A stretch of 64,000 bases of DNA from a plasmid. Position 1 is the stretch's first letter; the number at the start of each line of letters is the position of its first letter. Below are positions 61,101-64,000 of this stretch, piece after piece. Position numbers: made by a program. Where the stretch lies: NCBI RefSeq assembly GCF_057098645.1, contig NZ_JBXSPU010000002.1; one strand, 5' to 3'.

Positions 61101-64000
61101 CTCATCGTTGAACGATGGCTTCTTGCCCGCATCCGTAATGAAACCTTCCACACGCTCAGGGCGCTGAATGCGCGCCTTAGGGAGTTACTGACAGACATGA
61201 ATAACCGGCCAATGAAGGGGTACGGCAATCAAACCCGTGCAGAACGCTTCCGCATACTGGATGCGCCAGCACTCTCTCCGCTGCCTCTGGCACCTTATGA
61301 ATACACGGAATACAAAGCTGTGAAGGTTGGCCCTGACTACCACGTTGAATATGCCCGTCACTGGTACTCCGTTCCACACGAACTGGTCGGTCAGCGTCTG
61401 TCACTGAAGGCGGGGCAGTCGGTGGTACAGCTCTGGCACAAGGGGCAGTGTGTGGCGCAACATCCGCGCAGCACACATGAATATAAACACACAACCAATC
61501 CGCTTCACATGCCAGAGCGCCACCGGCAGCACGGGACATGGACACCGGAACGCCTGATCGAGCAGGGAAAACGTACGGGCCCGTCCACAGGCCGGGTGGT
61601 TGAATCCATGCTGAAGGCAAAACCCCATCCGGAACTGGCTTATCGTGCAGTTCTGGGGCTGCTGGCACTTCAGAAAAAATACGGCCCGGAACGGCTGGAA
61701 AAGGCCTGTTACGTTGCCCTGCACTATAACGCCCCTGACAGACGCTTTATCGACAATCTGCTGCGTCACCATCGGGAGAACCTGGAGCTTCCATTATCCC
61801 GCCAGGGCGAACAACATCCGGCATATGCTTCAGAGCATGAAAACCTGCGTGGTCCGGGCTACTACCACTGACAGAAGGAACAACAGTATGAGTGATAACC
61901 TGTTAAACAAACTGACCCAACTGAAACTCCCGGCGATGGCCGGGAGCCTGATACGGCAGCGGGAAACGCCTCAGACCTACGACGAACTGTCGTTCGAGGA
62001 AAGGCTGACGCTGCTGGTTGATGACGAGCTTCTGAGCAGGGAAAACAGCCGTGTGGCACGGTTGAGAAAAAATGCCGGCCTGAAATACCAGGCAACACCG
62101 GAAGGGCTGCGCTATCCGGCCTCAAGAGGTCTGCGGGCTGAACAGATGAGAGAACTGCTGAACGGCCACTACATAACCCACAGGAAAAACCTGCTGATAA
62201 CCGGTCCGACAGGATGTGGCAAGAGCTGGATAGCCAATGCGCTGGGCGAACAGGCATGTCGACAGAAACACAGCGTCCGGTACTGTAGAACCGGGCGATT
62301 ACTGGAACAACTGGCTCAGGGACGTGTTGATGGCAGCTGGCTGAAATATCTGAAACAGTTGCAAAAAATACAGGTTCTAATCCTGGACGATCTGGGGCTG
62401 GAACAGTTAAGTAACGCCCAGTGTAATGACCTTCTGGAGCTCATAGAGGATCGTTACGGACAAAGCAGCACGATAGTGGTAAGCCAGTTCCCGGTAGATA
62501 AATGGCATGGTCTGATGGAGAACCCAACAACAGCAGATGCCATCCTGGACAGACTGGTACATAACTCACACCGAGTGGTCCTTCAGGGAGAGTCACTGAG
62601 GAAAAATCCCCCGGTAGTGGAAAGCAGCGAAAAAACGCGTTAAAAAGCGGTAGAAAAAGTTAAGTTCCCGGTTGATCGAATGGATGCGAATCGCTGATCG
62701 GACTTCGATGCCAATCCGTGATCGAATAGAGCGGAATACGCACTCGTTATCATCAAGATAAAGAGGTTATTCTGCATGATTGTAAGGAAGAGATGGGATG
62801 GGATATCTTTTTCGAACAGGACTATTTGTTGCAAGAAAACAAACTGGCAATGAAATGGACTGATCGGGATATAATGGATGTCTATTCTAAAGTATTTAAA
62901 TCAACAATTAATTTGTTTGAAAAACTTGTCGTTAATAACAAGTTAACCTTAAGAGATACTTTTGGTTGGGTAATCGTAAACCCTACATTTGAACGCCAGT
63001 TTGAATGGATTGAGTCAGAAGTATTCGAAATCGTAGGAACTCATCTTGGTTACAACGTTGCCGCTATCAGAACACAGATGGCGACCGCGTGTAGGATGAC
63101 TTTCCACTAACATGCCACTGGCAAACATCTGCCAGCGGGCGGTGTTTGCATTTTACCGGAGTTTTAAAAATGACTAACGCCGCAACTGTATTAAAATCCG
63201 ACAATTCCGTACAGGAAGAAATCATTGGTAATCTGTTACCCGCAAATGTTATATCAAGTAAGATGTTTGCGAATAAAGAACAGTATTATCTTGTCAAAGC
63301 AAAAGATTTATTTGGCATTCCTGAGATGGATGAGGATATGATTGTTCCAGTGTTTAAAAAGTTTTCTCCATATCGTGCGAATCTGAATAAGGACTATATA
63401 CCAAATTCTCGAATACTTGAGCAAGTAGTAAAATTGCTTGTAAGTAACGATATAGATTTGAGTGTATGCCTGAAAGGAGAATCTGGATCAGGTAAGACTG
63501 AAATGGCAATGTATATTAGCCATATGCTGAACTGGCCGCTAACCATAAAGCAAATCAACAGCAATATTCGCGCTGATGAGCTGGAAGGTGAGCGTAGTCT
63601 TATTAACGGTAACACCAGTTTTGTGCCTAGCGAGCTTGTAACGGCATTTCAGGAAGGCCACCTCATTCTTCTGGATGAAGTGGACAAGATTGACCCTGAT
63701 ACTGCCGCAAAGCTTCATATGCCTATAGAGCGAAAGCCCTGGTCACTAGCTGCCAACGGTGGCGAAGTGGTTAAGGCAAATAAGTTTACGCGGTTTATGG
63801 GTACTTCAAACACAAACATGAGTGGGGGATCTCGTAAGTTCGTTTCATCGCAGCGGCAGGATGCAGCGTTTATCAAGCGCTTCCTGATTGTGGAGATGGA
63901 AAGGCCTTCAGAGGTTGCATTAACCAACGTTTTGCTTAAACGCTACAATAACCTGCCTATGCTGGTAATTGAAAAATTCGTTTCGGTAGCCGTTGCAGTA

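Follow-up and report, generated by a model that had tools for sequence, protein, structure and literature searches.

The window, by which we mean the whole 64,000-nucleotide stretch of plasmid DNA analysed here (contig NZ_JBXSPU010000002.1 of RefSeq assembly GCF_057098645.1), ends inside the gene of an AAA+ ATPase. Our analysis places this gene at the head of a trio, in which it is followed by the gene of a DUF3150 protein and by that of a von Willebrand factor A (VWA) protein with the architecture of CobT, and the three genes are essentially inseparable across the loci compared. The features of the ATPase gene within the window are as follows.

63170..64000, plus strand: 5′ part of the gene of a CobS/MoxR-class AAA+ ATPase (translation, identity to pHCM1, Pfam, relatives in the PDB)
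63158..63161, plus strand: GGAG Shine-Dalgarno sequence of this gene, 8 nt before the ATG (read from the sequence)
63476..63499, plus strand: Walker A (P-loop) GESGSGKT, residues 103–110 (sequence and translation)
63662..63685, plus strand: Walker B LILLDEVD, residues 165–172 (sequence and translation)
63809..63880, plus strand: sensor-1 N214 (63809–63811) and putative arginine finger R237 (63878–63880), both invariant alignment columns

The ATPase gene at the window end

The ATPase is encoded by a single open frame on the plus strand, running from the ATG at 63170 to position 64000, with 277 of its 350 codons inside the window. The frame is still open at the edge and its stop lies beyond. A sequence-only reading of the window had announced a partial AAA+ ATPase at this edge, and the open frame, the motifs, the identity to pHCM1 and the Pfam AAA_5 match now bear it out; the Walker A and Walker B motifs are present exactly as spelled there. 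The start that it gave, 63171, is one base off, since the frame from that position is full of stops and the correct ATG is at 63170. We favour this ATG over an in-frame TTG 24 nt upstream, the start of the open reading frame (ORF) called in pHCM1, because of the GGAG sequence at 63158–63161. Scans for promoters and terminators 5′ of the gene gave counts at the level of shuffled sequence. A GC-rich inverted repeat (CTGGCA…TGCCAG) occupies 63113–63142, inside the 59-nt gap between the stop of the upstream gene and the start of the ATPase; over this region, too, the terminator scan stayed at shuffle level.

Between 62743 and 64000 the window matches pHCM1, an IncHI1 plasmid of Salmonella Typhi CT18, at 100% identity; the gene appears in the annotation of that plasmid as "AAA family ATPase", with 350 aa (WP_000180136.1), and 496 plasmid records match the same query at ≥99% identity. 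Close homologues of the protein, at 48–99% identity, come solely from IncHI-type plasmids of Enterobacterales. Four IncHI genes compared between IncHI1 and IncHI2 are under purifying selection, with ratios of nonsynonymous to synonymous substitution rates (dN/dS) of 0.03–0.10 (dS being saturated); for the ATPase the value is ~0.1. This ratio, the complete identity to pHCM1, the 496 plasmid matches and the AAA_5 match together argue that the ORF is not a chance one.

The class of the enzyme was given by the sequence-only reading as MoxR/CobS-like, and this holds. A profile search with the full-length protein, which that reading had suggested, matched Pfam AAA_5 (PF07728) with 111.6 bits against a cutoff of 22 (E=3.9e-32), over positions 2–139 of the 139 in the profile. 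The nearest solved relatives in the PDB are the AAA domains of Midasin, followed by CobS, NorQ and CbbQ. The protein also matches PHROG 249, "porphyrin biosynthesis", at 2e-33, and is ~27% identical to cyanophage CobS. Against the TIGR01650 equivalog profile for CobS it reaches 35.6 bits, below the cutoff of 558.55. The IncHI ATPase gives no match to CbbQ_C, a domain that the SXT-type members carry.

Aligned with bona fide CobS of Sinorhizobium and Pandoraea, the ATPase keeps all catalytic AAA+ residues. Residues G103, G106, G108 and K109 of the P-loop and E170 and D172 of Walker B are invariant across the module ATPases and true CobS, as are T212, N214 and R237. The roles of N214 and R237 are assigned by analogy to N186 and R210 of CobS (preprint 10.64898/2026.07.21.739949). 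The sensor-2 residue, R290, is likewise invariant with true CobS; it falls past the window edge and is read from the identical gene of pHCM1 only. On the strength of the AAA_5 match, the solved relatives, the CobS score under its cutoff and the conserved catalytic residues, the ATPase is, as judged from its sequence, a CobS/MoxR-class motor, and neither CobS itself nor a housekeeping chaperone. By homology to the CobSTN system, it would form a hexameric ring and hydrolyse ATP.

Walker B reads DE in the IncHI ATPase and in true CobS. Outside IncHI, many module ATPases have Asn in place of this Asp (LIINEMD, LILNEID, FLFNEID) and keep the catalytic Glu; examples are found at the following loci.

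L002:6957-8033, Asn-type Walker B ATPase
L011:8225-9169, Asn-type Walker B ATPase
L074:8984-9946, Asn-type Walker B ATPase
L053:5112-6113, Asn-type Walker B ATPase

Partner genes and their linkage

Since ATPases of this kind usually act with a partner, the sequence-only reading had placed one beyond the window edge. In pHCM1 and in pYPE10-190k-tetX4, a VWA protein of CobT architecture is indeed encoded two genes downstream of the ATPase on the same strand, with DUF3150 between, and every identical plasmid agrees with the prediction. The window ends at 64000, and a junction with an IS21-family insertion sequence (IS) upstream of the ATPase, described below, was found in no PLSDB record and in no complete E. 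coli genome; the partner of this particular molecule is for this reason read from identical plasmids, by which it very probably lies past the edge. The same reading had allowed that the downstream gene might prove an unrelated backbone function and the ATPase a housekeeping chaperone; the downstream genes are instead its partners, and the chaperone identity was rejected.

The strength of this association was assessed on 80 genomic loci, with flanks, seeded on DUF3150 and drawn from Gamma-, Beta- and Alphaproteobacteria and Desulfovibrionaceae; the genome scan was seeded with a 20-sequence DUF3150 alignment. Wherever the flank was long enough, the ATPase lies upstream of DUF3150 on the same strand (71/71 loci), and the VWA gene lies downstream in 69 of 70 testable loci. 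ATPase, DUF3150 and CobT-like adaptor thus form an essentially inseparable trio. A single-strand annealing protein is encoded 5′ of the trio in 50 of the 57 testable chromosomal or integrative and conjugative element (ICE) loci, and belongs either to the RecT family (36) or to the unrelated ERF family (14). A YqaJ exonuclease was found in 39 of the DUF3150-seeded loci and a single-stranded DNA-binding protein (SSB) in 26, while a RadC-JAB gene and a primase-like gene recur downstream of the trio. No cob genes stand beside the module in the IncHI plasmids or ICE loci examined.

The VWA protein consists of an M48-like N-domain, an acidic, low-complexity and disordered linker, a conserved segment preceding the VWA domain, and the VWA domain itself. 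The profile of its family finds CobT as the best solved relative (8e-19), followed by NorD, and the SXT-type member matches Pfam CobT and CobT_C; the N-domain of this SXT-type member, searched alone against the PDB with phmmer, returned nothing. CobT itself has an M48C-peptidase-like N-domain that binds the CobS lid, a disordered linker of ~90 residues, and a "shaft" before the VWA domain that inserts into the nucleotide-bound CobS ring, and CobN docks between its N- and C-domains, near the MIDAS, its metal ion-dependent adhesion site (preprint 10.64898/2026.07.21.739949). The conserved pre-VWA segment of the module protein aligns with the CobT region that holds this shaft. Each of the 71 VWA members has an intact MIDAS motif, DxSxSM…T…D. 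An HExxH motif is present in 70 of the 71, and a downstream [ED]DxRxE in the same proportion (70/71); the two would together make up a gluzincin-type zinc site. At the HExxH position, bona fide CobT, encoded by the cobT genes of Sinorhizobium and Pandoraea, reads "RG--LGDSMALRKACHD".

Among third genes DUF3150 alone is linked universally, and it has no homology to CobN. Its profile identifies 1,472 clusters at the 50% identity level among 1.84 billion representative proteins. The AlphaFold2 model, a confident one (pLDDT 84), is a helical bundle whose matches among solved structures are generic helical bundles only. The protein closes with a tail that is acidic and disordered and has an aromatic end, [DES][FYW][FYW]F or GLW; the tail ends in an aromatic residue in 89% of 144 representatives and resembles the C-terminal tip (DDDIPF) of the SSBs encoded at the same loci. 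The gene was located as follows.

L001:13859-14986: DUF3150 gene of the IncHI1 locus; the tail is also found in the DUF3150 genes of L002–L086

Canonical DUF3150 is essentially absent from isolate phage genomes, with a single match in a 127-kb Salmonella record, and a pattern scan of IMG/VR found none. Structural relatives in BFVD comprise nine divergent proteins of uncultured phages and one from Mycobacterium phage Dylan.

The order of the surrounding genes is well conserved. The closest relatives of the window are ~190-kb tet(X4) IncHI1 plasmids such as pYPE10-190k-tetX4. In that plasmid, in pHCM1 and in IncHI2 plasmids, the ATPase is preceded on the same strand by trhI and three hypothetical genes (~291, 125 and 326–328 aa), and is followed, again on the same strand, by an 89-aa ORF, DUF3150 (375 aa), the VWA gene (~670 aa), a 73-aa ORF and a primase-like gene (DUF7146/Toprim_3). 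The small ORF after the ATPase has 89 aa in IncHI1 and 57 aa in IncHI2 and is missing from IncHI5, which otherwise shows the same order at ~40% identity. An SXT/R391-like ICE in Proteus (L002) carries, from its 5′ side, ssb, RecT (bet), YqaJ (exo), an AAA_5+CbbQ_C ATPase, a 259-aa gene and DUF3150, and then a 146-aa gene, the CobT/VWA gene, RadC-JAB, a 113-aa gene, a Zn-ribbon/DUF7146/Toprim primase-like gene and traH. The module adjoins trhN/trhI in IncHI plasmids and sits between traN and traF/traH in SXT-type ICEs. PLSDB types the plasmids that carry it as MOBH and MPF_F. The ICE locus L050 (Aromatoleum) encodes a MOBH TraI_2 relaxase, an FlhC-like activator and an S24 repressor. The ATPase had also been suggested to be the first gene of a multi-component system: it is the first of the conserved trio, and it is not the first of the cluster, in which it is preceded by the three co-directional conserved genes in IncHI plasmids and by SSB, RecT and YqaJ genes in ICEs.

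Two further observations concern these neighbourhoods. At L050:6779-9646, a 955-aa large subunit of ribonucleotide reductase is encoded between the ATPase/SSB genes and DUF3150. In the IncHI1 locus, 3′ of the primase-like gene (L001:18991-24616), co-directional hypothetical genes follow, one of 174 aa and then five of ~290–320 aa, whose similar size suggests that the five are paralogues.

Immediately upstream of the ATPase, an IS21-family element, which is context and no part of the module, has interrupted the cluster in this molecule, leaving the following features.

60105..62742, plus strand: IS21-family element istA/istB (IstB_IS21 2.4e-60, rve, Mu-transposase C; terminal inverted repeats)
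62743..63110, plus strand: 3′ remnant (~122 codons) of a 328-aa hypothetical gene (WP_000810456.1) cut by the IS21 element, pHCM1 identity starting at 62743

The terminal inverted repeats of the IS21 element are repeated. The truncated gene, of which the 3′ third is left, has no match in Pfam, NCBIfam or PHROG; in IncHI1, HI2 and HI5 plasmids it and two other hypothetical genes always stand ahead of the ATPase. Mapping of the flanks shows that the two IncHI1 segments brought together by the element lie apart in reference plasmids: in pYPE10-190k-tetX4 they map to 38626 (minus strand) and 24365 (plus strand), ~14.3 kb apart and in opposite orientation. An IS-mediated inversion of ~14.3 kb would fit this pattern; the ATPase and its downstream partners would then stay together in the inverted segment, detached from the trhI-side genes. 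Further upstream lie an IS5-family transposase (DDE_Tnp_1; 54048–55016), a tyrosine recombinase (55121–56311) and a Tus-like replication-terminus-binding protein (Pfam Ter, 6.7e-20; 57535–58494), all typical of IncHI1 backbone or cargo.

Proposed function and alternatives

Based on these data, we propose that the module is a CobS/CobT-like motor–adaptor that runs on ATP, belongs to MOBH conjugative elements and works on DUF3150, or together with it, in DNA processing or establishment, a reading to which we give a probability of roughly 0.55. If the homology to CobSTN extends to mechanism, the ATPase would form a hexameric ring that grips the shaft of the adaptor, and ATP binding or hydrolysis would move the adaptor, whose MIDAS face and N-domain would hold the client. 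DUF3150 would then occupy the place of CobN, either as the client or as a third subunit that recruits it, and the retained metallopeptidase site may add a step of proteolytic processing. The context suggests that such a machine would serve the processing or establishment of the transferred element, in an accessory rather than an essential capacity.

We propose a role in the handling of transferred DNA because genes for an SSB, an annealing protein, an exonuclease, RadC-JAB and a primase-like protein surround the trio. Its carriers are IncHI1, HI2 and HI5 plasmids and pCAR1, SXT/R391-like ICEs and many chromosomal islands. In SXT, the module region is described as a large operon activated by SetCD, which begins at s089 and has the strongest SetCD peak in front of it (PMC4344509), and the ORF100–109 operon of pCAR1 is more highly expressed in a transconjugant host (PMC2642839). 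Deletion of s067, s068 or s070 in SXT lowers transfer by ≤10-fold (PMC2791158), and this modest cost is why we regard the role of the module as accessory.

Several points weigh against this proposal. The SXT deletions just mentioned are among them, the module having been mapped onto these genes by position only. The IncHI plasmids have no detectable annealing protein, exonuclease or SSB beside the module, and hhalign found no similarity between the three IncHI upstream genes and RecT, ERF, YqaJ, SSB or other families of the cluster; the link to recombination consequently does not hold in the IncHI element at hand. Expression of the module is uncertain in this molecule, since the cluster is broken a short way upstream by the IS21 element. 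The literature searched on DUF3150 (PF11348) and on the named SXT genes contains no functional study. Finally, we infer the complex of ATPase, DUF3150 and VWA protein by analogy, and a peptidase activity of the VWA protein would follow from the retention of its motif alone.

The obvious alternative is a genuine cobaltochelatase CobS/CobT pair that would boost vitamin B12 synthesis with a host CobN, as a form of auxiliary metabolism. It would account for the weak TIGR01650 CobS match, for the PHROG 249 assignment and for CobT as the best solved relative of the partner; a B12 role has been hypothesised for viral cobST clusters (PMC8651126), and the ribonucleotide reductase gene inside the cluster of one ICE locus could be read in the same sense. 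The CobS score of 35.6 bits against a cutoff of 558.55, the HExxH motif that the partner retains and true CobT lacks, and the obligate linkage to DUF3150 and usually to recombination genes, rather than to cob genes, all argue against it. To our knowledge, E. coli has no de novo B12 synthesis, and Salmonella follows the anaerobic CbiK route, which has no CobN. With a score so far under the cutoff, HExxH kept and neither cob genes nor CobN nearby, we rejected a true cobaltochelatase and regard this function as very improbable.

A plasmid-borne anti-phage or conflict system of the MoxR–vWA type, in which ATPase and VWA protein regulate an effector, is also improbable, if less extremely so. Ternary conflict systems built on MoxR and vWA proteins have been described (PMC7159879), cargo of that kind is frequent on plasmids and ICEs, and the peptidase motif could itself be the effector. 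Yet the module occupies a fixed backbone position by tra genes and not a variable hotspot (including PMC2791158), is co-regulated with transfer in SXT (PMC4344509), and contains no recognisable toxic effector domain. Searches of PADLOC-DB gave weak P-loop or ATPase-core matches for the ATPase (E ≥ 2e-5), none for DUF3150, and a value of 0.0047 to TmtA for the VWA protein; a known defence system was rejected on these P-loop-level matches and on the location of the module in the backbone instead of the cargo.

Two other readings keep the module within conjugation. An assembly chaperone for the conjugation apparatus, whether for the H-pilus and type IV secretion system (T4SS) or for a large surface adhesin, would resemble NorQ/NorD, CbbQ/CbbO and the ATV tail chaperone, in line with the maturation of protein complexes by MoxR–VWA pairs in general (PMC7824862); the position beside trhN/trhI in IncHI and between traN and traF/traH in SXT-type ICEs suits it, and the authors of the pCAR1 study proposed a role in transfer (PMC2642839). 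We consider a pilus or T4SS chaperone possible though unlikely: a loss of transfer of ≤10-fold on deletion of the SXT region, and steadiest neighbours that encode annealing protein, exonuclease, SSB and primase rather than mating-pair-formation functions, fit it less well than they fit the motor–adaptor in DNA processing. The module could alternatively act in the recipient as a host-takeover or anti-defence protease, in which host proteins dangerous to the incoming single-stranded DNA (ssDNA) would be removed or remodelled by the AAA+ ring and the HExxH adaptor, with DUF3150 providing the targeting. The zincin motif intact in 70/71 partners, the linkage to genes that handle ssDNA, the SSB-tip-like acidic aromatic tail of DUF3150 and the raised expression of pCAR1 genes in the transconjugant host would all be explained. 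This scheme is wholly inferential, the module does not lie in a demonstrated leading region, and the scheme overlaps with our preferred explanation instead of excluding it; we hold it doubtful, though not far-fetched.

The DUF3150 tail leads to a more specific version of the motor–adaptor reading, which we offer tentatively and consider unlikely in its full form. The trio would be a peptidase-bearing AAA+ machine of conjugative elements, in which the tail mimics the SSB tip and taps, or competes for, the host SSB interactome on incoming ssDNA; remodelling or proteolysis driven by ATP would in this way be coupled to the establishment of transferred DNA and to its recombination.

Comparison with known systems

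A close parallel is CobS–CobT, the motor of the aerobic cobaltochelatase CobSTN. The module ATPase aligns with CobS from end to end and has Walker A and B, sensor 1, arginine finger and sensor 2 in common with it, and the partner shows the CobT layout, including a VWA domain with MIDAS. However, the module ATPase is ~20% identical to CobS and far under the TIGR01650 cutoff, its adaptor keeps the HExxH motif that CobT has lost, and DUF3150 stands in place of CobN in a DNA-processing context of conjugative elements, not among cob genes. The MoxR–VWA pairs NorQ/NorD, CbbQ/CbbO, RavA/ViaA and CoxD/CoxE likewise combine an ATPase of the AAA_5 class with a MIDAS-bearing VWA partner, and NorQ, CbbQ and NorD are detectable relatives of the module proteins. 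The module differs from them in its third component, DUF3150, in the peptidase-motif N-domain of its adaptor, and in having no metalloenzyme client in the neighbourhood.

Pairs annotated as "cobS" and "peptidase/cobT" occur in cyanophages, jumbo phages and haloarchaeal viruses, and the module ATPase matches their family, PHROG 249. In jumbo-phage MoxR–vWA pairs the vWA protein carries an N-terminal metallopeptidase as well (PMC7824862), but the virion-assembly or B12 roles proposed for the phage pairs are ill-suited to a plasmid backbone.

On the side of conjugative elements, a MoxR-like AAA+ ATPase and a VWA protein conserved in pCAR1, IncH R478, IncT Rts1, SXT and R391 were noted in 2009 (PMC2642839). 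ORF100–103 of pCAR1, the SXT/R391 genes 3′ of exo, and the R478 and Rts1 homologues are the same module as the IncHI1 trio. The SXT-like ICE L002 has the same order and ends in the same primase-like gene, whereas identity between the SXT and IncHI types is ~23% for the ATPase and 20% for DUF3150, the IncHI type has no adjacent ssb–bet–exo, and the small ORFs between the core genes differ. Genes of the module are often annotated as cobalamin-related (10.1101/285403); the inseparable trio, the retained zinc-peptidase site and the two annealing-protein families argue against this routine "cobalamin biosynthesis" label.

The ATPase gene occurs in thousands of plasmid records, and the sequence itself is not new. 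What is new relative to the literature searched is the near-absolute linkage of the three genes, the peptidase motif that the adaptor, unlike CobT, keeps intact, the co-occurrence with annealing proteins of two unrelated families, and the aromatic acidic tail of DUF3150. The module is a conserved backbone feature of the main MOBH vehicles of multidrug resistance, namely IncHI1/HI2 plasmids, SXT/R391 ICEs and, by literature report, IncA/C. Its linkage as a trio, its retained zinc site and its travel with two annealing families make it a testable system.

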